This document shows, in pieces, positions 376 to 62,986 of a DNA stretch of 64,000 nucleotides. Where the stretch lies: positions 12,639,039-12,703,038 of the forward strand of contig CM119271.1 of the NCBI GenBank assembly GCA_051294375.1, given 5' to 3'. The notes beneath the pieces were generated by a model. The model was given only the letters and a program-made list of their open reading frames with translations. It made no database searches and was not told the origin of the DNA. This DNA is from Paraspadella gotoi (taxonomy: Eukaryota > Animalia > Chaetognatha). Positions within the stretch are counted from its first letter, which is position 1; every line of letters starts with the position of its first letter. Position numbers and translations under genes: made by a program.

Positions 376-459
<84 letters not shown>

Positions 460-1389: not shown

Positions 1390-1429
<40 letters not shown>

Positions 1430-1673
1430 CTCTCTCTCTCCTCTCTCCCTCTCTCTCTGCTCTCTCTTATTTTTCATATGCATTTTTTTCTCATTTTATA
1501 ATTAATTTAAAAATTTCATTCTCTCTCTCTCTCTTTCTCTCTATCTCTCTCTCTTCTCTCTCCCTCCCTTTCTCTCTTTTAATTTATATCCAATATTTCA
1601 ATTTTTTCCCTATTCTCTCTTTCCATATTTGTCTCTCACTCTCGTTCTCATTGTTTTTTTCTCCCACTCTCCG

Positions 1674-2690: not shown

Positions 2691-3137
2691 GTTGCAACGG
2701 GATAGCCATGTTAACCGGCGGGATTTCACCAACTGGCTAGGGGCTACCTCTGGCCTCTGTCTGCTTTATGCACCACATTAATAAGATAAGTTGAGGACCA
2801 GATGAAGATGATTTCCGCTCAGCATTAGATGAGTAGACGGAAGGTAGGCATAAGTTGCGACGATCCCCCCAACTTTCAAGGGCCTCATGGTTCTAGAAGG
2901 TGACATTGCTTGGCGCACGACTTTTAAGAGTAACATATATACTGCGTGCTGGCACGTACGTTCTTGTGAGCGCTCACTTTGGAACGGGGTAGCCGATACG
3001 CGGGTATCACCAAGCAGCTGCGCCTCAGACTCTCATGGCTTTACGGCATGTCAATTAACTAGAGATCGGGATTACCACGCAGGATGAATGAGTGTTGCCA
3101 GCCTTGAGCGAGACCGCAAGCAGCTAAGTCTGCTCAC
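2691..3137 (-). mobile_element. Garbled consensus of the family A mini-LTR element (same site as 9838-10462)
   Basis: Deletion-riddled matches to the LTR (ttgcaacgggatagcc, tcaccaactggctaggggct, aagtctgctcaca) at the same position in the duplicated block. Confidence 0.6.
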
Positions 3138-7352: not shown

Positions 7353-8405
7353 AGGAGAGAGAGAGAGAGAGAGAGAAAGAAAGAGGAGAGAGAGGAGAGG
7401 AAGAGAGAGAGAGAGAGAGAGAGAGAGAAGAAGAGAGAGAGAGGAGAGAAGAGAGAGGAGAGAGAGAGAGAGAGAGAGAAGACAGTCTTTTCGATTGGCT
7501 GGTCACATCGATTGAATGGCCTCATCGTTTGATTGTTGGCCTTTTGGTTGATTGGCCTTTTGGTTGTTTGGCCCTTTGGTTGATTGGACTCTTAAAATGA
7601 TCGAAAGGCTTCTTCTATTCAGTAATTCATTCGCGTCATTTCTTTGGCCTCTTTTTACTTTCAGCTCTCTTGGCCTTTTCTTTGGCCTCTTCTTTGGCCT
7701 CTCACCCTCTCACTCTTCTCACGGATTTTTTCTTAACTCGAATTTTTTTCGCGCAAACATGAAGAAAAAAAAGAAGTTTGAGCAAAAAATGTCGGATCTG
7801 CTCGCGATCGTTTACCGGTAATTGATTGATTAAATAATTAAAATAACGACTTCTTTTATTAAACTTAGATTAAAAATGTCAATTATTAAAATTCGCCGAC
7901 TGCAGATCTCATGGAACATTATTTATTAATTAATTTCTGTTTCATATCAAACTGTGATAATAACAAACATATGAAGTCGATTCGATCTGTTTTGAATCTG
8001 TGGACGAATTTCCGTTATTTTCGACCGACGAGAATGTCGTCCGTCTTTACCGACACTTTGGCCGACGAGGGCAATCGCATCGGCGTCTCGACCGGTCATC
8101 TCCCCATCGTCTCGCTCTCTCTCCGCGGCGCTGAAAACGTCCGACGCCGCCGTCGACGCCCCCGAGCAGCGATTCGAAGACCCGCTGCGGCTGCATTTCG
8201 TCTGCCGCCGCGAGAGATGCTTCAACGCGGCGACGCAGCTGCGCAGCCTGGCGATCGAGGACGTGAAGATTGTCGAGGATCAAGACGGAGTGGAAAGTGA
8301 GAACGTCTCTGTCTCTCTCTGTCTCTCTATCTCTCTCTCTCTATTTTATTTGCACTTTGAGCATAATTAATTTATAATCAAAAATTCAAATCGATGTTTC
8401 CAATC

Positions 8406-8496
<91 letters not shown>

Positions 8497-8714
8497 GCTC
8501 TCTCTTATTTTTCATATGCATTTTTTCCTCATTTTATAATTAATTTAAAAATTTCATTCTCTCTCTCTCTCTTTCTCTCTATCTCTCTCTCTCTCTCTCT
8601 CCCTCCCTTTCTCTCTTTTAATTTATATCCCAATATTTCAATTTTTTCCCTATTCTCTCTTTCCATATTTGTCTCTCACTCTCGTTCTCATTGTTTTTTT
8701 CTCCCACTCTCCGT

Positions 8715-8976
8715 CCCTTCCCCTCGTTGGGTCGTGGACAAGTCGCTAAGTGGGATAAAGACCAATATCCGCAACTTCTTTAACCCCTCTAGCAGCCATG
8801 GAACGGGTCCTGGGCTTGGAACCAGGCTTGAGAGTTTTCCATCCCACCCCCCAAGGCGGTTTACGGCCGTCCTCACGCTTCCCGCAGGGTAGGTTCCATC
8901 GGGGATCGATCCCGGTACCTAACGGTCAAGAGCTGATGGTATTACTCAATGAGCAATTATGCAATGCCCGACTACA
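8715..8976 (-). mobile_element. Family C Pol III-box + twister repeat unit
   Basis: Duplicate of 1674-1932; homologous to 56660-56942. Confidence 0.8.
8796..8887 (-). ncRNA. Twister ribozyme, type P5 (family C)
   Basis: Minus strand ctgcggga-a-gcgt-GA-GGA-cggccg-T^AA-acc-GC-cttggggg..ctctcaag-cctgg-TTCC-AA-GC-ccagg-acccg-ttccatgg. T1 pseudoknot UCC/GGA; predicted cut 8863^8862. Confidence 0.72.
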
Positions 8977-9837
8977 AGATGGATCAAGAGAAAAGTCGAG
9001 TTTGAAGAAGGTGGGCGAAGAAGGTCGGTGAATACAATATCAGAAATCTGATTGGATGAATCGTCGTCCGAATCGAACCAATGAGAAGACGGGGCTTCTT
9101 CTACTTACTTAAATGTGGTGGCATTAATTTACGCTTAAAGTTGGGGCATCGTTCATGGACAAAGATGGACAAAAGAAAAAACAAAAGATATGGAACTAAA
9201 AATAAAATGAAAATATCTGCTTTGTGGCGAAGGAAAATCAATTTTCGTTGGATCTAATCGAAAGAGAAAAGAGTTTAATCAATCGCCGGTTTTACAGTCC
9301 TGTTCCAAAAAAAGAGGACTTTCTTCAAACTTAAGTTGCGCTCGTTTTACGTACATATTATAAAAAATTTTGAATGATAAATGTAGATTTTTAAATGGTA
9401 AATGCATATATGTAAGTTTTAAAAATGGGTCCAAGCATTCAAGAGCTAAAACATTAATCATTTTAGTCACGACAAAAAATCATTTTAAAGATCTGCCTAA
9501 AACCGAAAATACTTTTTAGTCTTAATTTATGGGCATATTATTTATGTTTTCTAAAAAATTATGAATGGGAAATAAAGGCTTTTGAAAAAGGAATCCATAT
9601 GTGTAACTTAAAAGAAAATCGGTCCAGTTATTCCAGAGTTACAGCACCTTAAACACAAAAGGTTAAAATTTTTTTTTTTCTCTTATATTCTGTTTGAGTA
9701 CCTAGTAGTTATAACCTCGTAGTTACTTTTAAAAGATTACTGCTTCATAACGGATAGCCACATATTAACCAAATTTACACCAATATTTTTTTTTTATGAA
9801 TATTATTTACCTATATAGATAGGCAAGTTACCTGGTC

Positions 9838-10462
9838 GTTTATACCGGCACCGTCACATTTAAGCTAGAACCGGGATACCCAGGGATTGAACCCGGGACG
9901 CACGGATGGAATGAGATGATTTAGCCTGCTCAGCCATTGAGATGAGGCTGAGGAACGGACAGCAGTGAGGCAGCTTTAAGTCTTGCTGCCACAGGATCCC
10001 CCACCAGACTTCTCCACAGGGCCTCACAATCCTGAGGAGATGTCTGAGAGAAGGTTTTTGATCTCATTGCCATAGTGAGAGCGAGCGGGGAGCAGCGAGT
10101 CTGGAGCGTTTACCAGAGAAGTAGGGCATAGGCGTGATATGCATACCCTAAGCGACGTAAGCTGGGCGCACGTGCGCAGCGGTTGCGTGTTCGAGAGTCG
10201 GGCTCACCACTATGCAACGGGGGATAGCCTGTGATACCCGGGGCCGCGGGTATCTCACCAACTGGCGTAGGGGCTGCGGACCCTCAGTGACCGCCTCTGT
10301 CACTGGCATTTTATACCGCACCGGTACATTTAAGCTAGAACCGGGATACCCAGGATTGAACCCGGGAACGCACTATGGAATGAGATGATTTAGCCTGCTC
10401 AGCCATTGAGATGAGGCTGAGGACGGACAAGCAGTGAAGCAGCTTTAAGTCTTGCTGCCACA
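9838..10462 (-). mobile_element. Family A miniature non-autonomous LTR retroelement (TRIM/retrozyme-like): 5' LTR 10462-10211, internal region 10210-9994, 3' LTR from 9993 (cut short in the assembly)
   Basis: Direct repeats starting TGTGGCAGC with a 469-bp period. PBS-like TGGTGAGCCCGAC (10209-10197) and GGTGGGGGATCC before the 3' LTR. LTR matches the solo LTR at 29496-29750. Confidence 0.85.
10262..10338 (-). ncRNA. Twister ribozyme in family A LTR (noisy consensus)
   Basis: Homologous to 29620-29697. P3/P4/L4 intact; several apparent indels in the 5' half. Confidence 0.5.
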
Positions 10463-12304
10463 ACTGCTTCATAACGGATAGCCACATATTAACCAAATTT
10501 ACACCAATATTTTTTTTTTATGAATATTATTTACCTATATAGATAGGCAAGTTACCTGGTCGTTTATAATGTTTTTTTAAATATTTTTACATTTACTGAT
10601 AGGAAATGATGTCAATATTGTTGATATAACATTTCAAATCAATCGACCCACGCGTTCAAAAATAATCTACAAAAAATGGTCATTTTCCACGCCCAATTTT
10701 TAAAACAAATCTGCGTTCATTAAATTTTCTTTTTGGTTCCACTTAAATTTTTAGCTTCGGCCGAGTGACTTAATTGGTAATAAAAAAATTGATTTTCTTT
10801 GATATCTTTTGAACCAAAAATGATAGAACGATGAGACTGGTATCATATTAAAGCCATAATTATGGGCATCTTTTCCATATAATTTTCTAAAATGTTTCAA
10901 AGGATTTTTTTAAAAACTGGATCGGAATCTTAGTCAAAAGTATGAACAACTTTTGAAATTAAATTAAATACACTTGGCCATAATTAAAAAAAAAATAAAT
11001 GTAGATTCTGAAAGAGAAAAGATTGAATTATGTTTCTGATATTAACAAAAATTTTCTATATACTTCAAATGTTTATATAATTACTAAGGATAATGAATTA
11101 TCATTTTGGTGAAAACACAAAAATTTAAAAAATTCATGTAGGAACCTTAAAAAACATATGATTTAAATATGAAAATTTAGGAGTTCAAACTTTGTTCCGG
11201 CTGATTTAAAAACGACTGACATAGGGCTAAAAGACTGTATTATCAAATTTTTAAATTTTGTCATCTTCAGGTGCAAATTAAAACCTTTGCATAATGCCCA
11301 TTAGCTATATTAATATAACAATTTTTTATTAAAAAAAGCACTACAATTTTTTAATAACACGCTAATGCATGTAGCTGTATGGTAAAATTGTGTTTTTATT
11401 TTTATATTATAATACAAGGCTTTTATCAATAAAGGGGTAAATTGCAAAGAAAATGTGTTATTTCAAGGCTCCATATTGATACTATAAAATCAATGAATTT
11501 TCTTTGTTCCGGCAACGAAATATACCTAAGACATTGTAGTTTCATTAGCTAATTCTTATTTTTATAATTTTAAAGGGCATGTTTGGCAAAAAACAGTAAG
11601 AAACAAAAATGACAACAAATTTTGAGAAAAAAATTGGATTAACTGCTATTATTTCTTACTATGATGTCAATTTATTTTTTTCATTATGCGCTTTAAAGTT
11701 AGGCTAAACCCAACAGAATCGGAATCAGTGCATGACCGCTGTATATTTATTTGACTTATACAGTAAATACCACAAATAAAAAAAATTTTAAACGAATTCA
11801 GACTAAGCGTCGTGTTTATTTTCAGTATTTTTTAATCAAGACCTTTATGGATTTTCTTTGTTCCGGCGGCGTTGGATAGCCCAAACACTGCAGTTTCAGA
11901 AATCATCTATGGTTTTGTAATATTTACTGCGCTACTGGTGCAAAAATTGCTAGGAACCAAAATTATCAGAAACCGCTTCGTTTTTTCGGATTTTTTTTTA
12001 AGCGCGGAGCGACATATCTAACCTATAATATCTTTCATTTTAAAGGAATCGAACTATTTGAACATAATGTTTTTGGGTGTCTTCTTTTTTTTGCACAGGA
12101 CTGTACTTCCGGTAAAAATCGCCCTACTTTTTCTGCCAGACGAAAATTAAATTTGACAATGAAAAAAAAGTCGAATAAAAATTGATTAGCGTTTTCGAAC
12201 GGTGACGTGTCAAAAATCGACTTTGCCTGGTTATTCTTTGTCTCTCTACTGCTTGCTTATTCTTACCTTTTTTTTGCTCGTGATAATAAATATAAAGCTG
12301 GCTT

Positions 12305-16922: not shown

Positions 16923-19297
16923 ATGTCTAACTCGTCAATACTCACAAGGGCGGGTAAATTAAAGAAACATCCATTATCCATAGCATTTCACGATTTTAAA
17001 TACAAGTTGCAAGCTGCCCAAACCTCATGTAAGGAGGAAAGTATTAATATTGCAAAACAAGCTCATGAAAGATTGCATACTCTGGCTAGTGAAACATACA
17101 AAGAATTGAAGGGTGAGGGTTTGACTAAGGAAAGGGAACTGAGAATACAAAAGCATTACAAGAATACGAAAAAGAAGAATCCACATTTCATGATCAAATG
17201 GAAGAGTTACTTAAGTCATTAAATACGCCTGCAATAACAATCTTTTGCTCCCTAATGCTCCCAAGTCCGTTTCCATGTCTGGTAGATCTCAAAGCTCAAG
17301 GGCTTCGTCAAAGGGAACCAAATGTAGTGTCAGGAGTTTAAAATTAAAGGAAACGGAAAGAAATATAAACATCAGGAATTATAAATTAATGAAAAGGATC
17401 GTAGCGATCAAAAAGAAAGGGAAGAAAGGGAAAATGCATTAGAATTTGGAAGAAGCCAAAAGGAAACTGCAAAAGGAATGGGAAGAGAAGCAAAGGGAAT
17501 GGGAAGAGAAGCAAAGGGAATGGGAGGAGAAGCAAGTGGAATTAAACAATTTAGCCTTAAATTAAAAAACCAAAGGGAAGACAATGAGAAAAAGAGGGAA
17601 AGGGAAAAGGATGATGGAAAAGGCTGAATTAAGTAAATTAAATGACGATATCCAAATTTTACAAGATGATGCCTCCATTCCTAACACACCCGGTTTACCA
17701 AAGACTCCTTCTGCCTTTGATAAGGTTACACATTGGAATGATATGAATAAACAAGAGAGGGCAAAGGGCAATGACTTGGTTCATTTTGCCTGAAGCTTCT
17801 ACTTTAAATCATGAAGCTCCCTCATTTAATCCATATAAAAGTACGAATTTAAACCCAAGCTTTAGCACTAAGACTCCGGTTCCTCACGCATTGTTTAAAC
17901 CCCAACCATTGAGATCACCACTTGCCCGCCAACAGCATCTGGCAATTCTGGATTCCCATCCACTCCTCAGGTTCCATCCCAACCAAATCAAAGCAATCAA
18001 TTTAAGCCATGATGCCTCCACCTTTATGTTCTTCAGCTCCTACTCAAGCCTTGATCCCAGCATTATTCTGGCATCTTCGCTAAGCTGGAGCGAGCGCGGC
18101 CTAAGGAAGATAAGAGGTGAAGGGTGACAGCTATAGTTTAGCGTCATTCTTATCTCGGTTTATATTGATGTAGAACGACTTCCTGGGGTAGATGATCGTG
18201 AAAGTATCTTGAGTTGTTGAAATGGACGACTGGTGAGGCTTATAATTCCATTAAGCAATTTGAAAATGAACTGGATGGACTAAAGCTTTAGCTTATGCTA
18301 AACAAAAGTTAGTTCATCACTGGGGTTATAGCAACATACTGCTGCTGAAAGATTAGTGACATTATAACAAGACTACTTTAAGTAAAGGCGATCTTGTTGG
18401 TCTTAGAAACCTGTTATGGAGCCTTGAAGAGGCTAAAAACACTGCTCTCATGTCTGGGGATTATGAAGGTTTTTCTAACATCGATCTTGTAAACAATTTG
18501 ATTGATAAGCGCATTCCATTTCTACGTGATAAATGGCAATACTTCCATCACAAGTTGACTGTTTATCAAAAGCAAAAGGAACAATTTGACCATTTCTTAT
18601 ACTTTCTGGATGATCAAGTCAAACAGCTGGAGTCTCCATATGCTCGTCCAAGTTTTCCTCCAAAAGATGTTATTAAAGTGGCAGCTGCTAACACTTCCAT
18701 GACTTTGCAATACTCTAGTAGCTCCAATCATACAAATGAGGATTCTTGGAATAATGGCTCGGCTGATGAAAAGAAATCTAGTGCTACAAAAAATTTTAAT
18801 GACCAAGTAAAAGTTTTAAACATGCCCTTTGTGCACTAGTAAACATTATTTGTCTGGTTGTCCTACATTTTTGAAATGGGACCAAGTACAAAGATTTGAG
18901 TATGCTAAGAATAATCGTTTATGCTTTCGGTGTTTGAATAAACATAAAATTTCTGACTGCAAGATCACAAAGTTATGCTGTAAAACGTGTAACTCTAAAA
19001 ACCACCATTCTTTGCTTCATCGGCAAACAAAAGAAACTCAAGCAGCTGATGATTCCATAAACCAATGTGAAACAAACAATTTCAATGCCATCGCCATCCA
19101 CAAAGTACAGATTTAACATCTGCACAGGTTCTTGCTACAAATGATGGTGGTGTACTTTATCGACCTATAGTCGCCATTCTAGTGAATTACAAGAACAAAG
19201 GTGCATATGTTTATGCATTATTAGATACGGGTAGTACAAGAACATGTTGTTCCACAGAACTATCAGAAAGATTAAATCTTCCCAGACAAAACCATGG
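16923..19297 (+). mobile_element. Decayed BEL/Pao LTR retrotransposon (gag + aspartic protease), truncated by an assembly gap
   Basis: Frameshifted ORFs with a coiled-coil gag region, BEL-type triple zinc knuckles (C..CTSKHYLSGCPTF...RLCFRCLNKHKISDC...CKTCNSKNHHSLLH) and the protease motif VYALLDTGSTRT. Confidence 0.85.
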
Positions 19298-19397
19298 NNN
19301 NNNNNNNNNNNNNNNNNNNNNNNNNNNNNNNNNNNNNNNNNNNNNNNNNNNNNNNNNNNNNNNNNNNNNNNNNNNNNNNNNNNNNNNNNNNNNNNNN

Positions 19398-27169: not shown

Positions 27170-28614
27170 TCAACCATTGAGCAAGAAGTACTTTGCCCTC
27201 TGATTAAATTCTTTGGCGAATCGAAGGTGCAGAACTGCAGATTGTGTTTTCCCTGAGTCACGTTAATCAACTTGGAGTCTTTGATGTTGTCGCGAAGGAA
27301 AAGCGGATGTTGTGGGTCGATCATGTCATCCTTTGCCCCATGGATGATAAGGGTCGGGCAGGCAATATCTTTGAGTAAATCCTAGGGCAACGATAGTTTA
27401 AAAAAAAAAAATAGCAAAAAGGAATAATAAAGATAAAGACAATATTGTTTTTTCTTTTTGTAATCTATTTGTCACTGCACTGGTACGCATTACAGCAAGA
27501 ACAATCCACATTGCAATAACAATGGCTTAATGCTAACCTTGCAAATATCGCCGTTTTTATGCTGAAAAATTGTGTAAGAGTAATTCATCATTCTGTCCCA
27601 ACATTGTCTTAGGTAGGCATCGCCGTATAAGTCAAGCATCGGCCGACGCATATTTTCTGACCATTGGTCGATATCCCTTAATTTCAAAATTAATAAAATA
27701 ATACAAGTTAACCGAATTATCACAATAAATAGTATTATATATTTTGACTTTCAACCCTTTAAAAGAGCTGGATCTCCCTGTACCATTATATTATGATTAT
27801 TATAATTTCAACCGGCAAAGTACAATAGAAAATAATTTATGTATGATTAATTTTAAATAAATTTACTTTGTAACTTACTTTGACTTTAATAAAAATATAT
27901 TCATCTAAAAATTATAAATACAATGATTATTAATATAAATGATACACTAGCTCATGATTAAAATTTTATATGTAAGTTGATGGTTGTACTAGTTTCATAT
28001 ACACTTACGTGCATAATTTGATCTCTTACAAACCTAATAGACTCAGTAATTTCCATATCTAAATCAGACATGAAGGAGTTCGATCCCCATACAACTAGTT
28101 TCCGAGTTAATTCAGGATACTTGGCTGCAAGGATAAGGGCAGTAATACCGCCATTGCTCCAGCCCCACATTTAAAAGGGTATCAAGTTAAGGGATTTCAT
28201 GAGCGCCACTGCATCGTCAGCATCGCGGACAAATGCATCATTGGGAAAAGTGCGGTCAGGTGGATGGGATTGTCCGTAACCCTTTGAAACATCAGATGAG
28301 AATCAGAATTGCTCGACGCGGAATGACTTTCTACTTGGGTCTCTCACCCTCGGATCCCAGGCAACTAAGTTAAGATGAGGATCATCCTTTAGAAGTTCTA
28401 GTTGAGGGGCAAAGTTGGTCCTTGCTGAACCCAAAACGCCAGGCAAGAGAAGAACCGGATGGTCGCCTTGACCGCTTTTTTCATAGTGAATCTGAACTGC
28501 AATGTGGCCCGGTCGCGCTGGTATAGTAGTTGTTAACATTTGAACACATTTTGGACCAGGCCAAAATATGGGAAACAGTTTAAATGCTAAAAAGCTTTTC
28601 AGAATAGAATTCAT
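27170..28614 (-). pseudogene. BPHL: BPHL/valacyclovir hydrolase-like tandem duplicate, disabled
   Basis: Same exon structure as 29007-30985, but with an in-frame TAA (SLNLIPF*MWGWSNGG) and an 8-nt insertion in the last exon (cacaatctgcagttctgcacctt). Confidence 0.75.
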
Positions 28615-29006: not shown

Positions 29007-30985
29007 TTAGCCATTGAGCAAGAAGTACTTTGCCCTGCGATTAAATTCTTGGGCGTATCGAAGGTGCAGATTGTGTTTCCCTTGAGTCACATTGATCAAC
29101 TTGGATCCTTTGATGTTGTCACGAAGGAAGATCGGATGTTGAGGGTCGAGCATCGCGTCCTTTTCTCCGTGGACGATTAGGGTCGGACAAGCGATGTCCT
29201 TAAGCAAATCCTGGGTGAAAAGAGCCAAGTTAAATTAAATAATAAACAAAATCTAAAATGATTGTGCATAATCTTGAATTTATCATCCTGGTCAGAAGGA
29301 CGCCTTGCAACAATAGGTCAATACGCGACAGTAGCTGTCCAACTTGCAACAGAAACTTCTAATGTCAGGAACAAACTTGTGGAATCTCGATTGGATATTT
29401 GTGGATTTAATTTATTCATTGATTATTCATTGTTTCACCATTGATAATTATTTAATTGATTCGTTACTCTTTTCTCTCCTCAGTTATCATGAGTTTGTGG
29501 CAGCAAGACTTAAAGCTGCCTCACTGCTGTCCGTCCTCAGCCTCGTCTCAATGGCTGAGCAGGCTAAATCATCTCATTCCATCCGTGCGTCCCGGGTTCA
29601 ATCCCTGGGTATCCCGGTTCTGGCTTAAATGTGACGGTGTGTATAAACATGCCAGTGACAGGAGGCGGTCACTGAGGGTCCGCAGCCCCTACGCCAGTTA
29701 GTGAGATACCCCGCGCCCCGGGTATTACAGGCTATCCTCCCATTGCCATAAGTTAACGATTAATATTTTATAGCAGAGGTGTTGGGTACTTCTTCGTGTT
29801 TTCTTAGTGACCCCTTTGTGCTCACTAAGCTGTGGCTACTGATCTGGCAATGGTTCTAAATACAATAACAACAGTTAACGTAGAAAAAATTTTATTTCTA
29901 AGGCTTATTCCTTGAAAAAATCCATTCTTCAGGGCTTGATTACCATTTTTACGACATGAAAACAATTTTAAATATTGTTTACTGTTATCACTTTATTATC
30001 TTATTATCTTGTTGTATTCGAATAAAAACGCTTAAATAGTTAAGAGCAATGACTAAACTTGCAACAACAACAACAACCACTCACCTTGCAAAGATCCCCG
30101 TCTTTCCGCTCATGAATCGAATGATAGAAATCCACCCAATCGTTCCAATTTTTACGGAAGTAGGCCTCACCGTACAAATCGACCATCGGCTGACGCATCC
30201 TCTCCGACCATTTGTCAATGTCCCTAAAATAAAAAGGCGACATATAGGCCAGGATATTTATTGTATGAAAGGATAACACCAAATTCGCTAGCAAAATTTT
30301 ACCGCGCGCGTCGCAACTACAACAATCAACATCCCATGGCCCCACCTAACGGCCGCGGCGATCTTCAAGTCCAAATCGGATATGAAAGAGTTTGATCCCC
30401 AAACGACGAGTTTTCGCGTCAACTCGGGATGCTTGGCCGCGAGGATGAGGGCGGTGATCCCGCCGTCGCTCCAGCCCATCAGGGAGAAGGGCGTCAAACC
30501 GAGAGACTTCATGAGCGCGGCGGCGTCGTCGGCGTCGCGATGGAACACGTCGTCGGAAAAAGTGCGGTTTGGCGGACGGGAGAGGCCGTAGCCCTTTTTG
30601 GCGGGAAAAATTGTTGACGAGCGGAATCAGTTGGAGATTAGGAGGAGCGAATGTTCTCCTTCCGTCTACTGCGTCTACAATCTACTTTTCTATTTTCTCT
30701 CACCCTAGGATCCCAGGCCACTAACCCAAGATGAGGATCGTCTTTAAAAAGATCCAGTTGAGGACCAAAATCTGTCCTGGTCGATCCCAGAGCGCCGGGC
30801 AAGAGAAGGACCGGATGATCGCCCCGCCCGCTCGTCTCGTAATGGATCCGGACGGAATCGTGGCCCGGCCGCGCGGGCAGAGTAGTGGTCAAAGTTCTCG
30901 CGGAGCCGGCCGGAACGACGCCGGCCCGAGCGACGCCGGCAACGGGCGGGAGTTTAGAGAAAAATCCACTCAAAATGGCGGACAT
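29007..30985 (-). CDS. BPHL: Valacyclovir hydrolase / BPHL alpha-beta hydrolase
   Basis: VLLLPGALGSTRTDFGPQL, VAWDPR-GYG-SRPP, nucleophile motif GWSDGG, CPTLIVHGEKD, GKHNLHLRYA. Spliced. Confidence 0.93.
29552..29605 (+). promoter_or_regulatory. tRNA-type (type 2) Pol III internal promoter in the LTR
   Basis: A box TGGCTGAGCAGG at 29552-29563; B box GGTTCAATCCC at 29595-29605 within a T-arm-like stem (cccggg/cctggg). Confidence 0.7.
29620..29697 (+). ncRNA. Twister ribozyme, type P5 (family A)
   Basis: P5 ctggc/gccag; P2 acat/atgt; GA; T1 CCG/CGG; T^AA cut at 29644^29645; T2 GC/GC; P3 cagtgac/gtcactg; P4 aggg/ccct; L4 TCCG-CA-GC. Confidence 0.78.
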
Positions 30986-40399: not shown

Positions 40400-41637
40400 A
40401 AACTGGAGGAAAAGTAAAAGTAAAAGTTTTCATAAGTCAACGCAGAAATATGTCACTATTATTAATTTGATTTTCGAGAATCCACATCAGTAAAGAGTGG
40501 AATAAACAATCACAGCATCTTCATTTCTGAAAAATGATATCTTTTCCAAGGCTTTCATTAAATATGAGCAACAACAAGAATCACATTTGGGTTTTGTAAG
40601 ACTTTCTTCTGGTGACTCAGTTATTAGAAAATTCGATTCTCTTTCAATGAATATTTAATTCTAGAATCGCAATACTAAAAAAAGGCGAAAACTATTTTTC
40701 AAGTTGGAAAAAGTTAAAAATGTAAAGCCAAGTCGAGACAAGAAGCGGACAAAAACTTTGGACGCAACTTTAAATATCCAACTTAAAATAACACAACACG
40801 CGCAATCATACCAACATCCTCTCGGTAAAATATTGAAATAATAGAGACATTGAGGAAAAATTGCAAAATTGCAAAACTGCGCAAAGTTATAAGCGTCGAT
40901 CAAAACGACCTTAAAATGTAGTTCATATTTGATCGAATTAATTTTTTGTCGGGGGGGGGGGAAAGAGGCGCGGGATGGGATCTAAGAAGCCCCCAAATGT
41001 TAAGAGACCTGGTCAACAGATTAAATGTCAGATTCAGTCAAGCTTTAACAAATTATATGAGGTCGAGCACAAATAAACAAAAAATGGTGGTGAATAATCT
41101 GATGGATTTAACGTCTAAAATATATTTGGTTGATTCTAATTCACATGAGAAAGAAATCGAGTATAACCGAAATATAAGCACACAATGTGGTCGGCGAATC
41201 GATGGGGTTCCCATCCTTTTCAACTTCTCTTTTGGGTTTTCATCCTTTTTCACTATTACTTTCAGTATCTATCTCTAATGTAGTAGTTTTTATCTCCTTT
41301 ACATTTCAAAAGACCAAATCCAAATGCAGCAAAGACCAAAAAAAAAAAAAAAAAATTCATTGATTATTCATGATTAACAAAAAGAGACAAAAAAAAATCA
41401 AAACCAAAACTCGTAAAAAATACTGTAAAAACATAAGAACTCTAGTGTCTCCCCCCCCCCTAAAATCGGCATTCCACAGTTCTTTTTTTTTTTTCAGCCA
41501 ATCAAATTCGTCCCTTGTGGCGGTATATTCACTCCGCCTCACATCCACCATCTGTCAGCCAAATCCATTGGCTCAGAGGGGGAACACACCATCCCAGGCG
41601 TAGTGTTCCATCCACAGTCCTAACGACTTCCCTCTGC

Positions 41638-41718
41638 GTTGGCAAAGCGAGACCGTCCTAGGGTAACCGCGCCAGTGACTGGAGGCGTCACTGAGGGTCG
41701 GAAGCCCCCAAAGCCAAC
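41638..41718 (+). ncRNA. Twister ribozyme, type P5, in the 5' LTR
   Basis: P5 gttggc/gccaac; P2 (c)cgc/gcg(a); GA; T1 CGG/CCG; T^AA cut at 41664^41665; T2 GC/GC; P3 cagtgac/gtcactg; P4 ggg/ccc; L4 TCGG-AA-GC. Confidence 0.8.
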
Positions 41719-42125
41719 AGTGAGATGCCCCATCCCAATGGGCATCACAGGCAACCCGGCTGTTGCCATAAGTGGTGAGCCCTACTATCGAACACGCAAC
41801 CTTCTCAGGGTACGCTATGACAAACGCCTATGCCTGCCGACTTTGGGTACGCTACGACAAACGCCTATGCCCCTGGGGTACGCTACGACAAACGCCTATG
41901 CCCCCACAACTCGCGCTCTCTCTCTCTCTCCCACTATGGTAACAGTCTTGTCAGACACCTCTCAGGCTTGAGGAACCTGAGTGATGTCTTGGCCCGGGGA
42001 TCCTGTGGCGGTATATTCACTCCGCCTCACATCCACCATCTGTCAGCCAAATCCATTGGCTCAGAGGGGGAACACACCATCCCAGGCGTAGTGTTCCATC
42101 CACAGTCCTAACGACTTCCCTCTGC

Positions 42126-42205
42126 GTTGGCAAAGCGAGACCGTCCTAGGTAACCGCGCCAGTGACTGGAGGCGTCACTGAGGGTCGGAAGCCCCCAAAG
42201 CCAAC
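42126..42205 (+). ncRNA. Twister ribozyme, type P5, in the 3' LTR
   Basis: Same as the 5' copy except P1 is tcctagg; predicted cut 42151^42152. Confidence 0.8.
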
Positions 42206-42286
42206 AGTGAGATGCCCCATCCCAATGCGGCATCACAGGCAACCCGGCTGTTGCCATACCCTTTTTTTTTTCTCGAATCATCCCAA

Positions 42287-45200
42287 TCACGAACCCTGAT
42301 ATCCGATCGCCGAGAGAACGACCTCGTCCCCATCGTCGGTGACTCTGCTCGATGGTTTCGCCGTCGACGAGTCGGACTCTCTCGAGGATCCGATGCCGCT
42401 CGTTCCGTCTCCGCTCGACGCCTTCAAGAAGACGACGAAGTCTTCCTCCTCTTCCCGCTCCACCTCCTCGAATTCGAAGCCTTTGAATCGGTTCGTCGGA
42501 GATTCCTCCAACATCATCCGGTCGATGGCGCGAATTCTGAAGACGACGAATCCAACGCAGAACGCGACGAGGGAGACGACGATGACGACGACGACGACGA
42601 CGACGGAAATCGCGACGACGGGGATTCGCGTCGGGGTTCGAGCTACGACCGGCGATGACCAACGGCCGACGCCCCAATCGTTGAAGGGCCGAACTCGAAA
42701 GGAAAATTCGACGCCGGGATCAAGATTCTCTGCCGTAAAACGGCGCCGGTTCTCCCACGGTTTCGATGGCGTGAAAACTTCGCGGCGCCGGATTTTGTCA
42801 GACTTGGTGACTATCTCGAACGAGAGACCGGCGCCGCGTAAATCGCAAGAAAAGGCGTCCCACGTGAGCGAGACGGCGTCATCGGCGATCGGTTCCGCCG
42901 CCACCGAAAAGCTCATATTCCCCGGCGGCGTCTTTTCTCGATAGACGCAGGAATCGCGTCGTCGACGGAATCTGTTTTCCTCGAGGGCGTCGTCGCAATC
43001 GAGCGGAACGTAGGCCCACTCGCGGTCGATGACATCGCCGACGAAGATCGGGACGTCCTCGTCCGGCCGCCGGACGAAGGTCTCGGCGTCGACGCAGTCC
43101 GAACCGCGTTTCCGGCACGTGATGACGCGATAGAGGCGGCAGGGTCCAGGGTCTCGTCTCATTTCGATCCACGCGACGGAAAATCCGATGGAATTTCCGA
43201 GTCTCGTCACTTTCATGCGTCGATCATCTTCGCCGACGAACGAGAGAGAGAGACGCAGCGGCGAAGACGGCGGCGAGCGGCCGGCGGAGTTGACGCTTCG
43301 GAGAGTCAGGTTGGTCCATGGAGGCGTGGAGGATGGCGCCTGTAAGAGATGAATTGAGTTGCTCAATATTATTTGCATGCGGTCTTGTTGGCGTTTGAAA
43401 GATTTAATTAATTAGGTATTTACGGTCTAAAACTTTTATGAAATTGGTACAAACAAGATAAAATTATCTATTCATTTAATAAATAAGCTATCTTGCTCCT
43501 GACTTTGGACAGGCTTTGAAGGTTCAAGGCCTCCATCACTCTTACCAGATAATGACGTTGCAGGACGCTGCAAGCTTTCACACTGGTCATTGGAATACCA
43601 ATTGATCACAATATTTGTTAATTATTGAATTAAATTACATAGTAATATTCATAGTCATATACTGAAAATTAGGATTCTGGTGAAGAACTTATGATCCAAA
43701 AGTTCAATGCTTCCTTAAACGGCTCTCGCTTAATTCAGTCTACCACATCTTGTAAGACATGCTTCCCTTTCATCAAATCAACAAAAATATACCACTTCAT
43801 TGATAGGGAAGCCAGGTACTCTGGGAGTGAATAAACGAGACTGTGAGAAAGTCTTGATTGAAAGCTTGCAGGGACCTGCTATGTTATTATCTTGTAAGAG
43901 TGATGGAGGTCTTAAACCACCAAATTCAGGGGCAAGATAGCTTATTTATTAAAAGAATGGATAATTTTTTATATTGGTTGTACCAATTTCATACATGTAC
44001 TCTAATATTCTTATAATATAATAAGTTAAGTATTACTTAAGACCCTCTTAACACACCGTCCACGAAAGACGATGAAGGCAGCGCCGGTAGCACGAGCGAG
44101 GATGAGAGAGAGCCGCGACGCCGGCGTCGATGACGAATTCCGTCAAGACGCCGTTTGTCTCGCAAGTCGGAGGATCGAGGACGTAGAGAATGAGATGAAC
44201 GACGCCGCTCAAAGGATCCGCGTCTGTCTCGAAGGCCACGAAATCCGGCGCCGTTCGAGGCGGCGCCTCCGCGGTGAGAAAGGAAAGAACGACGGGCGAA
44301 CTGGGGAATCCCTCGGGTCCGGAGATTGTCCGGAGATTGGCCGAGTAGTCGACTCCGGGAACGAGGTCGTCGACGGCGGCGAAGGTCGAGTCCGAGACGG
44401 CAACGGAGGAATTGAGACAAGACGACGTCAGCGAGACTCGAAAATGATGATCGATTCCAAATCGATCCAATATTTTGTTTCGTCGCCAACGGAATTCCGC
44501 TCGAGTCTTCGAGACGTCGACGACGACGAAACCTTCGGCGGGAGAGGGCGTCACGAGTCGAGAAGGCATCGCCAGACGAACATCGCCTGTCAGATTCAGG
44601 CCCGCCGCCTCGACGATCCATCGGAATCGCATGACTTCGTTTTGCGCGAAAGTGAAGACGCAGTTTCGATCCCGCGGCGTCGGATTAAGTCCGAGTGTTG
44701 CTTTTAAGTCGACGGGGTTGTCGGCAAGAGTTTCCCCCGAAGAAGGGTCGAAGGCGCATCTGAATGGCGGCGCCGAGCTGCTGTTCAAGTTGCGGCCCTC
44801 CACGAAATACTCGATCGAAATCTCTTGGGCTTCGGGAAAAGGAAAAGCGAGAGTTCGAAAGACGATTCGTTCAAAGTTGTCGACGAGCAACTCGAGCCGC
44901 GAGGATTTGAGAGAGAGAATCCGTATGGAGGCGAGGATTGGGTTACATCCGGAAGAAGGGCTAGAGTAGTATCCGCAGTAGAGACGATCCACGCGGCTTT
45001 TCCCGCTACATGCGGGTTGAAACCGCGCAACGACGGATGTGGGCGTGGCGTCGACGGACACGAGGGCCGCCTGACGCCATCGACATTCGAAACCGAGGGC
45101 GGAGGCATTCTCAGCGGATTGAATGAGGGGGATCTGTCAGGGATTGTTCAATTGTCAGTTTTAGTTGTTTACATTTTAGTTGACATATAAAAGTCACAAA

Positions 45201-49254: not shown

Positions 49255-52200
49255 CTAAGAAATCGAACCTTCTTCCCCTCCTCCTTCTCTCCCGTCCTTC
49301 GCTTCTTCCTCCTTCCTCGCCTTCTTCCCCGGTTCTTCCGAATCTCCTCCCCTTTCCTCCTCCCCCTCTTCTTCCTCTTCCTCTTCCTCATTTTCCGGCG
49401 AGTTCCTCTTCAAGGGCGGCTCCCCCCTCTCTTCCTCGCCCCGCCTTCCTTCTCCTTGGCCCTCGATCGCCCCCGAAGATCTTTTTCTTTTCAACGGCGA
49501 CGACAACGACGACGCCGAAATCGAATCCGGCGACGACACGAGCGCCGTCGGCGCCGCGACGGACTCCAACGGCGGCTCCGGCGTGGAAATTTGCGCCGTC
49601 GACGAGGAAATTGGCGCCGACGACGCCGATTCTTTATCGGAGATCGAAGATTCGTCCTCTCGCGGGGTCGAATCTGTTCTTGAAGGCGATGACGAGTCCA
49701 TCGACGCCGTCAACTTTGTCGACTCCGCTTCGGCGTCGGTCTCGATCGATTCCGGTTTTGTCGGCACAGATTCCGCCGCAGCCGCCGCCGCCGCCGCCGC
49801 CGTAGATTCCGGCGTCGACATCTGTTCGCTGGTTTCCTCATTCCTTGCGTCGATCGATGCGGCGTCGGCGGCGTCTTTGCTCGTCGTCGCCTCGGCGTCA
49901 TCTTCCATCTCATCGACGCCGGCGTCGTCCAGCGGCGTCGCCCGATCATCTCTTCGCGTAGAGTCGGCGGCTTCGTCGTCTTCGGAGAAGGGGGCGGGAG
50001 GAGCAGCGGACGACGCCGCGGGAGCCGCTGACGGCGTCGCGGAGGCAGCAGCAGACGGCGCGGCAGGGCAGGCGTCAGTTTTGATAACGGAGATCGGCGC
50101 CGGTTTAGTTTCGTCGTCGGGTTTTTCATGAAGCGGAAGATGAGACTCTGGAAAAAGCGGATATGTATTAAAATTAATATAAATTATATAAAATAAAAAT
50201 TGGTTAAATTAAAAAAAAAACTTTCCAACCGGAAGTTGATGAGGATGAAGATTCTGTAGACGCGCCGGCGTCAGCGACCGCAGCTGAAGCGTCGGTGGCG
50301 GCGACCGCGGCAGCGGGAGCGGCGGCCAAGACAGTTGCGGCCGCAGCAGCAGCGGCTGGAGCGTCCGCGGCGGCTGAAGCGGCTGAGGCTGTCATCAGCG
50401 ACTCATCGATGGGCGCGGGGGGAGTCGAGACGGCGGGCAGTGCGGGGCTGACCGTCCTTACAATGCGGACGTTTTTCTCGAATCCGCGCAACAATTTGTC
50501 GATTCGTTTGTAATATTTCTTGGGTTGAGTCAAAAGTTCGCAGAGACGCTGTAAAAAAAAATATATATAATAATTATGTCAAGATAGAGGCTCACCTTAC
50601 CGCCAGAACCTCTCTCTCCCCCGGGCCTTCTCTTCCCCATTACATACTTACCCTACTTACCTCTTTCCCTGATGAGAGACTAGTTAGTACCTACCTTTAG
50701 CTAGATACCCATCTTCCCAGTATGTATTTATCTCTTTCACTTTCTCTCTCCCTCTCTCTTTTTCTCTCTCCCTCCCTCCCTCCGCCATTCCTCTCTCTCT
50801 ATTTCCCGCTCACTCACTCTCTCTCTCTCTCCCCCCCTCCAACCTGAATGGTGAATGGAATCCCCTGAAAATTATTAAGCGCAGTGACGATTCTTTTCTT
50901 CATCTTAAGGATGTGAATCGCGCAGCCGTCGTTCCCGTCGCTGGTCAGAGGTGACCCGTCGCTCGCCGACACCTGGAAATTCGCAAGACGCAATTTAAAG
51001 TCAATCTTGGGGAAAAAATTCGATCGGCTGAAAAAAATTAAATTAAATGAAGAAGTTTGAGGCGTTGAACGGCCCTAAATTTTTTTTAAAGGACGCATTT
51101 CCAAATCTAAAACAACTTAATAATATTAGTAATATTTTATAAATTATGCCAATTTTTGTTTAATTAAAACAGTACTGCACAAGTAATAAATACATTAAGC
51201 ATCTTATATTGCTCAACAATTTTAATTAAATATTTCAGATGTAAAAAGAAAAAAAAACAAAACAACGAACATACCCGACCGATCGACCAAAAGATTGAAA
51301 GATTCCTACCTGAATCTTTTCTTCGAGGAAACTGAGGTCTTCCTCCTCGTTGGTGATCTCCTCGACGACCTTTTCCAACTTGAGGACGACCAAGTGGCGC
51401 AGCTTGGTCCATGGCAGGCATGGCCAGCCTGATATGAGAGGATGGGGGGCAGTTAAGGATACGGGAGAAAGAGGTCAGGATGACCAAGTGGCGCAGCTTG
51501 GTCCATGGCAGCATGCCCACGCCTGATTATGAGAGGAGGGGGGGCAGTTAAGGATACGGGAGAAAGAGGTCAGGATGACCAAGTGGCGCAGCTTGGTCCA
51601 TGGCAGCATCGCCACGCCTGATTATGAGAGGAGGGGGGGAGTTAAGGATACGGGAGAAAGAGGTCAGGATGACCAAGTGGCGCAGCTTGGTCCATGGCAG
51701 CATCGCCACGCCTGATTACGAGAGGAGGGGGGGGCAGTTAAGGATACGGGAGAAAGAGGTCAGGATGACCAAGTGGCGCAGCTTGGTCCATGGCAGCATT
51801 GCCACGCCTGATTATGAGAGGAGGGGGGGGGCAGTTAAGGATGCGGGAGAAAGAGGTCAAGAAGGAAAGGTAGGTAAAAAATGTTTTGAACTAAATAGAA
51901 GATGATAAAAAAAAATGTTGCTCATCTCTCTCTTTAGTTGTCCACAACCCGAACCCCCTGAACGAATGCCGAACAGACGAACCTGTTTTGGCGATCTCCT
52001 CCAAGTATTTCTCGAGGATGTCGGGGATCCCGACGCGCGGCGCTCCCACGCCGTTCATCTCGATAGAAGAGGGAGGCGCGTCTTCCATCTTTCCCTCTTG
52101 AGAAAAAAAAAGTGAGACTTTATGAATATATATTATATATATAATTTATATATATATGAAGGCGACCTTCCTACGAATATCAAAATCCTCCGCTAATTCC

Positions 52201-55218: not shown

Positions 55219-57858
55219 TCAAGCGGACAAATCGATCTGGTCGGGAGGTCGTTGATGGCGAAGTATTGATGTCGAATGTCTTCGTCGAGAACGCGGACGA
55301 TCCTCGCGCCCGAGACGTCTTTCCCCAATTGAGCGCCCACCGCCGACGTCACGATCACCTGCCAAGAGAAAAACGCCAATTCGTTCGTCCAATCCAAAGA
55401 AGAGGATTTTTTTTTTTAAAGTCAACGCGAGACGGACGAACCTCCAAATCGCCCATTGCGCGCCCTCCCGCGTTTCGATGGTAATGCCCGCAAAATATTT
55501 TCCTGATGAAAAAAAGATTTTGATCCGAAGCTCAGGGGGACTGCTTATATTTGAACGGTTCCGTCACTGACACACAACAATGTCTCCAACACAATTCATT
55601 ACCGTCTCTTCACCTTCTCGTTTAAAAACGAGTTAATTTTAACAAAAACTCTAAATTAAACTCGCACCTAATAACCTATAATCAATCGGACCTGATGCCG
55701 CCCCGGTACAACTTTCTGAGCAGAGGCGTCCTTCGCTCCGACGGAAGATTAAAGTAAAGATCGTCGGGTTCTTCTGGATCCGCGAGGAAAGGAGGGATAT
55801 GCATGAACGCGACCCGATGTCGGGGTCGAGCCGAGGAAGCGGAGTCGTCGTCGTCGTCGTTGACTTGAGGGGCCTCCGAGGGGGCCCCGTCCGAGGGGGC
55901 CTCCGAGGGCGGACAGGATAAAGTTTTGTTCAGCCAAGATTCCTGCTCTTTGGCCAAAACTGGGACGAGACTGGGATCCTTGTAGTACTGCGGGAGATGA
56001 ATGAATTAGAAAATAAATCAATTTCAAAATAAACTTGAGTAAAAGCTAAGCGAGATGCCTAGTAACTCGGCAAAGTATTTGGGAAAACAAACTTTCGATA
56101 AACCGTTGGATTTGATTCTAATCCGTTTTCATTTACATTTTTGACTAATAAAACATTACTCTTCATTACGTTTAATTAGTAATTATCAACTGTCGTTTAA
56201 TAATAATTTATCCTATTCTTTTTTTTCCTTTTAATTCAAATCGCGTTACTTTATACTTTTCCGTATCAGATCAACTACTCTCTTGGCTCTTACAATGAGT
56301 ACTATATGTATTTAGTTCCGCTATTCATTAAGCATTTTTTCGCTTGGATTTACGATTCCCGATGCCCGTCTGCTTAATCCACTGACAAAGACCGACCGAC
56401 CAGACCTGGGAATTGACGACGACGAAGTGGACGCCCGCGACCCAAAACTCGAAGTAATCGTCGCCGAATTCGTCCGTGTATCGCTTGACGTCTTTGGGAG
56501 TTGGACGGTCGCCGACGTCGTGATTGCCGCAGACGCAAACGACCGGGATGGAAGGGTCCAACGCCGTCAGGGTTTCTGAGAGGTGAGGCCATTTGAATGG
56601 AGGTAAGTAAAAGGGATCGTGAAAGAGGAAAAAGGGAGTAAGTTAGCGCCTTATCCACACCCCTTCCCTCTAAGTGGGCTGAAGATGACTATCCGTAACT
56701 TCTATAACCCCCTTTAGTAGCCATGGAACGGGTCCTGGGCTTGGAACCAGGCTTGAGGGGTTCCCACGCCCCCCAAGGCGGCTTACGGCCGTCCTCACGC
56801 TTCCCACAGGGTAGGTACCGGGTTGGGATTGAACCCGGTACCTAGTGGTCATGAGCTGATTGCTTTACTCAATGAGCCACCGGGTAGGGACTGAAGGTGT
56901 CATGCTTATAGGCGGGGTGAACCTAGGCAATGCCCGACTACAGGGGTTAAGAGGCCGAGGATGACTTCCGTAACTTCTTTAATCCCTATTTAGCAGCCAT
57001 GGGAACTCGGGCTTGGAACCAGGGCCTCTCTGTCCCCCCCACCCTAGGCGGTTAACGGCCCATACAGAAATATCCGGGTTAAAAGAAAGGTTAGAGACAA
57101 AGTAAAAAAAAAAAAAAAAAGAAAGGCGAGTTGGAGCAAATTAAGCTTAACGACGAAATAGTAAATCTAAACTAAATCTTTATTTCTCACTCTTGAAATC
57201 CTTTTCCTGCTCCTCCCTCCTCGGATCGTCCCAAGGGAAAGAGTCGACCAAATCTCCGCAAATGACGAAGAATTTGGGTTTCGGTCTCATCGCGTTGATT
57301 TTGGCGATGAGTGCGGAGAGGAGCTCGATCTCCGCTTGCCATCCTCCAGTCTTGATCGTCTCAACGTCGTTTATGTCTTCTTTGAAACTGGGAGAGGAAG
57401 GGGGGGGAAATTGAGGGTAGATGGAACTCCGCGCGGGGATTGGTCTCTCCATTCGTAATGTTAATGTAAGAGCGTAATAAACCAGAAAAAAAAAGCCTTA
57501 TATTAATACAGAACATAAACCAATGGGACATGAAATAATTTACTTCTATATGCAAATTAGATTGATGAATTCAATCTCATGTACGGTGTCATTTTAAGAA
57601 TCTAACTCTTACATTATCGGACTGACTGACAGACTGCTCTGATAAAAAAATAATTGAAAGAAAAACTATCAAATCGTCATCATCATCATCATCATCATCA
57701 CCACATTCACATCCAGACCTTTCTATCATCCCGAACTGCGTGTCCGACCCTTGAACGAAGAAATAGGGCTCCAGCCATTGACCCTCTTCTTCGAAGGTCC
57801 ACCCTTCCAGCCCGCGGTCGCGTCCCTTCTTGATGACGAGGTCACCGGATGACGTCAT
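55219..57858 (-). CDS. CPPED1: Calcineurin-like metallophosphoesterase CPPED1
   Basis: FFVQGSDTQFGM; PKPKFFVICGDLVD; VCVCGNHDVGDRPT; FMHIPPFL; FCGHYHRNAGG; VTSAVGAQLG. The end is uncertain because of a frameshift. Confidence 0.93.
56660..56942 (-). mobile_element. Family C Pol III-box + twister unit (most complete copy) in a CPPED1 intron
   Basis: TGTAGTC start; A box TGGCTCATTGAG (56879-56868); B box GGTTCAATCCC (56835-56825) in a 13-bp stem taggtaccgggtt/aacccggtaccta; twister follows. Confidence 0.85.
56721..56809 (-). ncRNA. Twister ribozyme, type P5 (family C)
   Basis: ctgtggga-a-gcgt-GA-GGA-cggccg-T^AA-gcc-GC-cttgggggg/cccctcaag-cctgg-TTCC-AA-GC-ccagg-acccg-ttccatgg. Cut at 56785^56784; P2 is imperfect. 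Confidence 0.72.
56943..57061 (-). mobile_element. Diverged partial family C unit in tandem, starting near the twister cleavage site
   Basis: Minus strand ggccgttaaccgcc...cctggttccaagccc...ccatggctgcta...taaagaagttacgga.gtcatc, directly abutting the TGTAGTC of the next unit. Confidence 0.7.

Positions 57859-58368: not shown

Positions 58369-62986
<4,618 letters not shown>

Follow-up and report, generated by a model that had tools for sequence, protein, structure and literature searches.

A 64,000-nt stretch of the genome of the chaetognath Paraspadella gotoi (GenBank assembly GCA_051294375.1, contig CM119271.1, positions 12,639,039 to 12,703,038; hereafter the window, numbered from its first letter) contains three families of elements, here called A, B, and C, that carry predicted cores of the twister ribozyme. 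In these cores P1, the helix adjoining the predicted cut, has shrunk to a segment of 6 to 8 nt, namely, UCCUAGGG in family B, UGCCGGUA in family A, and CGGCCG in family C (Table 1). A sequence-only reading of this DNA had observed that P1 is replaced in all three families by a palindrome without a loop, and this observation is confirmed: every string that it quoted is present where it was placed, and each lies between the 3' strand of T1 and the U^AA site of a permuted twister core. The caret marks the predicted cut, which falls between 41664 and 41665 in the 5' long terminal repeat (LTR) of family B.

Non-coding elements and their predicted twister cores

Family B is represented by a non-coding element with two LTRs whose length falls within the 311 to 1263 bp of the Helenus group of TRIMs (miniature retrotransposons with terminal repeats). 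A twister fold is predicted in both of its LTRs, which is the pair of ribozymes by which an LTR retrozyme is recognized. In public contigs, loose ends cluster sharply at 41515/41516 and 41770/41771, the ends of the 5' LTR. Family A, which would measure about 720 bp if complete, is present as an indel-rich 5' LTR with a 3' LTR remnant and as a solo LTR. The primer-binding site (PBS) begins 2 nt past the 5' LTR, the polypurine tract is short and weak (clearer in A), and 4-bp duplications of the target site (TSDs) flank the B element (CCCT), the solo A LTR (AGTT), and the longer A copy (CAGT, the downstream counterpart of which is matched in a noisy duplicate near 2690). The combination of type III hammerhead and tRNA-Met PBS that marks known LTR retrozymes is absent, as the window gave no hammerhead match and the PBS is of the Trp type. 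On these sequence features, A and B are Helenus-like TRIMs bearing a predicted twister in each LTR, that is, putative animal LTR retrozymes.

The family A copy at 9843 to 9850 retains only the 5' half of the twister, its homology ending at 9838. The idea that this end beside U^AA (9838 to 9845) derives from cleavage was rejected, since a 7-nt microhomology to a duplicated flank of 106 nt accounts for it. The duplication is identical at 9739 to 9844 and 10463 to 10568, is joined to the A 3' LTR, and is followed by an empty target site; it is either an assembly chimera of a filled and an empty allele or a local rearrangement. The internal region of B holds three imperfect repeats of about 30 nt and a CT run (41812 to 41905), partly shared with family A.

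Upstream of the twister in all three families, a motif scan with box patterns located A-box- and B-box-like motifs, spaced 43 to 44 nt apart in A and C. TGGCT occurs in A, B, and one C copy, and GGTTC occurs in A and C and is degenerate in B; YGG is absent. ARAGORN reported no tRNA by default and gave weak calls when relaxed, and no T4 run lies inside any element, which alone is not significant. From this tRNA-like head, we infer a possible promoter for RNA polymerase III (Pol III). In one X6 contig, 23 loose letters that resemble a cDNA template-switch adaptor directly precede 41557, a position 12 nt ahead of the A-box, which weakly suggests that Pol III may start there in the sense direction.

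Family C has the twister and the tRNA-like head in common with A and B; at its two loci, neither a PBS match nor a flanking duplication was found, and the reading as an LTR element is confined to A and B. The framing of the ribozyme copies as belonging to a 5' and a 3' LTR thus held for A and B and was not borne out for C. Head to tail ahead of the full unit at 56671 to 56942 lies a degenerate partial copy, and the two jointly would contain just an inner ribozyme of the kind described below.

Table 1. Coordinates of the elements, predicted twister cores, and P1 segments in the window
Feature	Position	Strand	Details
P1 segment TCCTAGGG, palindromic	41656-41663	+	Family B 5' LTR; main feature
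Predicted twister core, B 5' LTR	41638-41718	+	P2' 41647-50, T1' 41653-55, U^AA 41664-66, L4 41698-41705
Family B non-coding two-LTR TRIM, Helenus-like	41516-42258	+	743 bp; ends TG...TA
B TSD	41512-41515 and 42259-42262		CCCT, 4 bp
B 5' LTR	41516-41770	+	255 bp; 99.2% identity to 42004-42258
B 3' LTR	42004-42258	+	Second predicted twister core 42126-42205; weak purine-rich tract just before
B tRNA-like head	41569-41613	+	A-box-like 41569-41581, degenerate B-box-like 41605-41613; alignable to the heads of A and C
B PBS, tRNA-Trp type	41773-41785	+	11/13 bases as in the Trp PBS in Fig. S2 of PMC10886601
TCCTAGG segment	42144-42150	+	Family B 3' LTR
A 5' LTR, indel-rich	10213-10462	-	Upstream TSD CAGT; segment TGCGGTA
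A PBS	10197-10209	-	12/13 bases as in the tRNA-Trp PBS
A 3' LTR remnant	9838-9993	-	Ends at 7-nt microhomology into 106-nt flank duplication
TGCCGGTA segment	9850-9843	-	Family A 3' LTR remnant
A solo LTR	29496-29750	+	TSD AGTT; A-box 29552-63, B-box 29595-604; predicted twister core 29620-29697
TGTGTA segment	29638-29643	+	Family A solo LTR
Family C unit	8746-8975	-	tRNA-like head; predicted twister core 8884-8804; CGGCCG 8869-8864
Family C unit	56671-56942	-	CGGCCG 56791-56786; A-box and B-box 44 nt apart
Family C copy	1706-1910	-	CGGCCG 1827-1822; duplicated assembly segment, same locus as 8746-8975
Family C copy, degenerate partial tandem	56948-57060	-	Homology starts inside P1 palindrome, 5 nt before predicted cut
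CGGCCG segment	1822, 8864, 56786	-	Family C

The cores were recognized with a twister descriptor drawn from the twister consensus and afterwards matched to the Rfam Twister-P5 consensus. It found cores at 41647 to 41708, 42135 to 42195, and 29629 to 29689 (three matches in the window versus none in 100 shuffles), and a separate pattern search of the window gave two matches versus 0.02 expected. Further cores were added by eye: the indel-rich family A core near 10330 to 10270 and the family C cores at 1822, 8864, and 56786. Along the strand the order is P5, P2', GA, T1', the segment, U^AA, P2, GC, P3, P4, L4, and P5', which is that of the type-P5 circular permutation. Both pseudoknots are present: T1 covaries among families and is Watson-Crick throughout (CGG/CCG in B, CCG/CGG in A, and UCC/GGA in C), and T2 is retained as GC/GC. 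The conserved core nucleotides (U^AA, GC, U-NNN-AAGC, and GA) are complete in B and C; in A the first L4 adenine is replaced by C, and an A stands there in a relative read from a public contig (X11). P4 is perfect in all families, and P2 is perfect in A, with one C-A pair in B and one bulge in C.

Across the whole window, Rfam reported no twister match at the gathering threshold. A short stretch of the B core gave a partial twister-P1 match (15.2 bits versus 67.2; E, 0.91), and control twisters score 48.7 to 68 against Twister-P5. A metagenome scan with the P3-P4 motif of A and B returned 41 loci, none with a twister. Compared with shuffled sequence, the local folds are weakly better in two cases (z, -2.2 and -1.7) and no better in two others (z, +1.1 and +0.5).

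Self-complementarity and variation of the P1 segment

Two copies of the segment would pair with nearly the same strength in each family, the self-duplex energies converging at -11.0 (B), -10.9 (A), and -10.7 (C) kcal/mol although the sequences differ. The best hairpins of the isolated segments come to +2.7, +5.0, and +4.1 kcal/mol, respectively, so the sequence-only reading was right that the segments are too short for a stable hairpin; the intramolecular P1 hairpin of a type-P5 twister is reduced here to 1 or 2 bp at most. The central 4-mers are Watson-Crick palindromes in all three families (CCGG in A, CUAG in B, and GGCC in C), and the innermost pair varies in a compensatory manner, being C-G in A, U-A in B, and G-C in C. 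Because the innermost pair is impossible within one strand and is yet complementary in every family, we regard it as a telling sign beyond chance. A palindromic mini-stem next to the cut site is also the hallmark of the double hammerheads.

Self-complementarity had been claimed for each quoted segment, and it holds for those of B, A, and C and fails for TGTGTA, the duplex energy of which is 0.0 kcal/mol. As this string forms no duplex and is a minority form of family A, it was dropped as an independent palindrome. TCCTAGG of the B 3' LTR was dropped as well, being probably a 1-nt assembly indel or a private change, since no G deletion at 41661 to 41663 appears at 2% or more among the B variants listed in public contigs. 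A fifth form, TGCGGTA, which the earlier list did not include, occurs amid indel-rich sequence in the A 5' LTR (10320 to 10314) and has a duplex energy of -3.3 kcal/mol.

Among random 8-mers of LTR composition, 71 of 4000 form a duplex this strong, as do 0.34% of random 6-mers; when a hairpin stem of 2 bp or 1 bp is granted, the figures are 117 of 3000 and 0.9%. The chance of three Watson-Crick palindromic 4-mers is 0.0003; counting one pair as common to A and B raises it to 0.001. These tests are post hoc, and A and B are related families.

Twisters elsewhere differ in this respect. Among the matches listed for 167 phage and prokaryote loci, the twister descriptor accepted 18 distinct segments; 2 were dropped (L202, a type-P1 twister, and L171, an alternative parse), and all 16 that were kept have P1 segments that are hairpins of 12 to 26 nt, a Watson-Crick palindromic center occurring in 0 of the 10 with even length. 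A further 332 loci, selected for short segments, yielded seven descriptor matches among those listed, none with a palindrome of 6 to 8 nt; in that second set, L258 and L286 mark places where tandem type-P1 twisters adjoin, and in L296 and L527 a long hairpin was parsed in an alternative way. Three viral scans behind these loci covered 24, 44, and 25 of 64 parts, and the control loci represent only three T1 sequences. The phage contigs L286 (110 to 209, plus strand) and L258 (129 to 228, minus strand) each hold two type-P1 twisters in direct tandem, 6 nt apart, and a match also links the 5' P1 strand of the first twister to the second twister's 3' P1 strand.

Variation within the segment was read from public contigs, unphased except within single contigs, over 41490 to 42010 for B (9025 X1, 234 X6, 575 X9, and 2 X10 contigs) and over 29590 to 29720 for A (540 X1, 12 X6, 1 X11, and 1 X13); for family C, two independent loci in the window both read CGGCCG. 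The B segment is conserved, the sole change among the variants listed being A41660C, at 3.2% of X1 depth and below 0.3% in X6 and X9, whereas two P3-loop positions vary at 19% and 23%. In family A, TGCCGGTA is the dominant form in X1, X6, and X13, and TGTGTA accounts for at most about 10% of the depth at 29640 in X1. A minor form read from the consensus of loose ends (16 and 19 contigs), AGCCGGTC, keeps a 6-bp core with a duplex energy of -10.3 kcal/mol. The single X11 contig, which is 12 letters off the window, reads AAC-(CG or GC)-GTT, with changes at positions 1, 2, and 8, and is a perfect 8-nt palindrome in either central order (-10.1 or -9.3 kcal/mol). Core positions show few variants across the 9025 (B) and 540 (A) X1 contigs. 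Conservation across genomic copies had been named as a check on the palindrome; at contig level, it was seen in B, in the prevailing form of A, and in the X11 relative, and was wanting in TGTGTA and in some A outer positions that mismatch.

Proposed pairing between copies and its alternatives

We propose, with a probability of roughly 0.5, that P1 pairs between two ribozyme copies, giving a nested double twister with swapped strands whose cutting is predicted to be far better than that of one copy alone. Pairing of two segments puts the T1-exit strand of one copy beside the U^AA of the other, and the cores must then be hybrids. Pol III would begin transcription at the tRNA-like head in the 5' LTR and continue through both cores, and the two segments would pair into a shared P1 of 6 to 8 bp. 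The 3' half of core 1 and the 5' half of core 2 would form an inner type-P1 twister closing the spacer, and the remaining two halves would form an outer twister, so that the entire two-LTR fold is nested. Cleavage at both U^A sites would release a unit of 487 nt (41665 to 42151) with its ends held together, which host ligation could close into a circle by the retrozyme route; cleavage at the 3' site alone would leave an R-U5-PBS-internal-U3-R RNA that could be reverse transcribed in the usual manner of LTR elements. Lone cores, as in solo LTRs and circles, would have only 1 or 2 bp and a 4-nt loop and would be expected to cut more slowly, though not necessarily not at all.

Folding calculations bear on this proposal in both directions. 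In the native B element, the swapped fold reaches -254.2 kcal/mol versus -248.3 for two cis cores, a gain of 5.9, and the intermolecular swap gains -11.4 (B) and -15.1 (C) kcal/mol. Rfam failed to recognize the inner swapped ribozyme, the halves of which are 490 nt apart, and the degree of structure in the 487-nt unit is not out of the ordinary (z, -1.36; 60 shuffles). As precedent, axolotl hammerheads with 1 bp and a palindromic tetraloop are reported to cleave to 6% and those with 2 bp and a tetraloop to 22% as monomers, with dimers doing much better (PMC7229834).

Several observations speak against the double twister. The unconstrained minimum of B, at -265.0 kcal/mol, lies 10.8 below the swapped fold and is non-catalytic; the segment-segment pair probability in B is 0.003 (folding without pseudoknots), and free cofolding of two cores pairs the segments in C and not in B. 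About 490 nt of transcription separate core 1 from core 2, time in which core 1 can fold in cis. Each family has its single core flaw (the C-A pair in P2 of B, the C for the first L4 adenine in A, and the P2 bulge in C). The relatedness of A and B leaves about two independent origins of the palindrome, and the outer segment positions of A vary, unphased, making mismatches inevitable in some pairs. The B loop CUAG fits the YNMG tetraloop class (PMC5633025), and the A41660C variant, CUCG, stays a YNMG loop and breaks the palindrome, weakening the duplex to -6.1 kcal/mol and favoring the hairpin over it. A twister without P1 is reported to cleave at a near wild-type rate (PMC5408937 and PMC6154101), and P1 length, energy, and imperfections are described as having no effect on cleavage by natural type-P1 twisters (PMC11662667); the passages concerned in PMC5408937 and PMC11662667 do not deal with a short, closed 4-nt loop in a permuted core, and PMC8501958 describes P1-less cleavage as inefficient and activity as affected by P1 composition. 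The earlier proposal of an inter-copy P1 thus gains from the compensatory central pair, the conservation at contig level, and the absence of such palindromes from the controls, whereas the dependence of cleavage on that pairing is put in doubt by the reported cleavage of P1-less twisters and by the non-catalytic unconstrained fold.

If each core cut efficiently alone, with its stem of 1 or 2 bp and 4-nt loop stacked on T1, P1 would be dispensable, dimers would add little, and the elements would be ordinary retrozymes. We consider this unlikely, if far from negligible. It agrees with the reported dispensability of twister P1 (PMC5408937 and PMC11662667) and with invertebrate hammerheads that are described as cleaving as monomers with a 2-bp helix III (PMC7761336 and PMC7229834), and both CUAG and its CUCG variant are YNMG loops closed by C-G. 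Cis folding during transcription would also come first, and two wasp Helenus LTRs (supplement of PMC10886601) appear by eye to contain a type III hammerhead in the corresponding position, so that the layout suits a monomeric ribozyme. Such monomers would, however, leave unexplained why every family, and the X11 relative as well, has a loop that is a Watson-Crick palindrome; CCGG and GGCC fall outside the YNMG class, the isolated hairpins are unfavorable throughout, and the controls that cut as monomers retain P1 hairpins of 12 to 26 nt.

The palindrome could instead be a dimerization signal of the kissing-loop type, used for packaging by a helper Gypsy element, presented by the twister fold, and lying about 110 nt upstream of the PBS, with cleavage independent of it. 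A signal of the retroviral type would explain the palindrome equally well, which also weighs against the double twister: a self-complementary loop is described as the dimerization initiation site in the leader of mouse mammary tumor virus (PMC8096270), and Ty1 RNA is reported to dimerize through kissing loops. A constant duplex strength with changing sequence fits such a signal, as do the PBS and the 4-bp TSDs of A and B. The palindrome nonetheless sits exactly at the P1 position, abutting the scissile U, it occurs in family C, where no PBS or TSD was found, and a folded monomer would expose only 4 nt of it; on balance we hold a packaging signal to be distinctly improbable. An even slimmer chance is given to the folds being attenuated or dead twister relics that are kept as structure and cleave little in any state. 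The lack of an Rfam match at threshold, the core imperfection in each family, and the modest fold z scores would agree with decay, which is hard to reconcile with the retention of the general base G, U^AA, both pseudoknots, and three distinct Watson-Crick T1 helices, and with the scarcity of core variants in the X1 contigs; natural twisters are moreover described as tolerating P2 flaws (PMC11662667).

The double twister may be taken further, to an obligate form. It would behave as an RNA AND-gate that requires both LTRs on a single Pol III transcript before it cuts; full elements would then release unit circles, and solo-LTR transcripts and circles would stay uncut. Its hosts would make up a class of animal LTR retrozymes for which Helenus-type TRIMs are the framework and the ribozyme can be exchanged, being a twister here and a hammerhead in the two wasp families. 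This extension is tentative, and we find it doubtful rather than probable. That solo-LTR transcripts and circles might be stable, as the sequence-only reading had foreseen, is something that we purely infer.

Surroundings, related systems, and implications

The assembly is indel-prone, with a noisy internal duplicate (361 to 2716 versus 7392 to 9770) that contains both 1822 and 8864, which were counted as one locus. The duplicate has a larger extent (361 to 4573 versus 7392 to 12010), with flanks at 95 to 97% and a heavily garbled family A copy near 2690 to 3150, and is likely an uncollapsed haplotype or read. Elsewhere in the window are a gene piece with 89% identity to a BAR-PH-ArfGAP-ankyrin protein and two adjacent, similar gene copies on the minus strand (27174 to 28536 and 29011 to 30892; 69 to 82% DNA identity), the second of which contains the solo A LTR; we take these copies to be hydrolase-like, the exon tested having no Pfam match. 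There are also a family resembling miniature inverted-repeat transposable elements, with long terminal inverted repeats (43435 to 43993; pieces at 15441, 19399, 35680, 54489, and 61203), and tandem arrays at 51383 to 51862 and 62135 to 62384 with units of 95 and 50 nt, respectively. A fragment of an LTR retrotransposon gag-protease region with weak aspartyl protease matches (18360 to 19300, plus strand; E, 0.002 to 0.006) has no link to A, B, or C.

Twisters are known in the permutations P1, P3, and P5 (PMC10085705). The window cores share with the type-P5 twister (Rfam RF02684, clan CL00120) the order P2'-GA-T1'-P1-U^AA-P2-GC-P4-L4, both pseudoknots, and the positions of the catalytic G and A. 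In contrast to its consensus, in which P1 is an 8-bp hairpin with a tetraloop, P1 here is 6 to 8 nt in all; the window cores also have both P3 and P5, a non-canonical T1, and scores below gathering. The double hammerheads of amphibian satellites, retrozymes, and Penelope-like elements likewise have a cut-site helix of 1 to 2 bp, a palindromic tetraloop, and tandem copies (PMC7229834 and PMC6765202), although they belong to another ribozyme class, in which helix III matters to catalysis, whereas twister P1 is reportedly dispensable. Dimer dependence has been demonstrated for the double hammerheads; for the twisters of the window, it is proposed from sequence and folding.

As hosts, A and B resemble the Helenus TRIMs (TRIMp3; Kojima 2024, PMC10886601), which are described as non-coding two-LTR elements of 311 to 1263 bp with tRNA-like A and B boxes in the LTR, a PBS, and, in animals, a 4-bp TSD; the wasp families share the tRNA-Trp PBS. 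The LTRs of A and B differ in ending in TA and in a box A without YGG. In PMC10886601, twister is mentioned nowhere and ribozyme once, in a reference, and 12 L4 motifs looked up in its supplement had no twister context (motifs split over lines would be missed). The wasp elements Helenus-2_SyJa-LTR and Helenus-2_SyUm-LTR, both with a Trp PBS, carry by eye an apparent type III hammerhead downstream of the tRNA head, which that paper leaves without comment; judged from their sequence, they too would count as LTR retrozymes of animals. The LTR retrozymes of plants (Cervera et al. 2016, PMC4918200) are likewise non-autonomous, with a PBS, a 4-bp TSD, and a ribozyme in each of the two LTRs, the cut sites bounding a unit-length RNA. 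Unlike A and B, they are described with a type III hammerhead, a tRNA-Met PBS, and no promoter, and they occur in plants. Metazoan retrozymes have been described as lacking LTRs, PBS, and polypurine tract (PMC7761336 and PMC7229834). The twister T-variants of Schistosoma Perere-3 (PMC8501958) are likewise irregular-P1 twisters in an animal retrotransposon. In contrast to the window cores, they belong to type P1 and occupy the 5' end of an element without LTRs, and their P1 is completed by flanking DNA; neither "dimer" nor "palindrom" occurs in that paper.

Neither a natural dimeric twister nor a twister-bearing LTR element was found in the open-licence literature; the alignments of Roth 2014, which lie outside that scope, could contain examples with a short P1. 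An intermolecular dimer of the rice twister is mentioned in one review as a crystal artifact. Even if the monomers are active, a twister-bearing animal LTR retrozyme was not encountered in that literature. The three natural palindromes amount to orthogonal pairing codes that could serve engineered RNA circularization. If the proposal is true, these elements would hold the first natural twister shown to act as a swapped dimer, the principle of the double hammerhead would extend to a second ribozyme class, and the sensing of copy number by mobile elements would be convergent. A ribozyme would then be placed in the LTRs of animal TRIMs, where retrozymes had been described as being without LTRs, and Helenus would be tied to the retrozymes.
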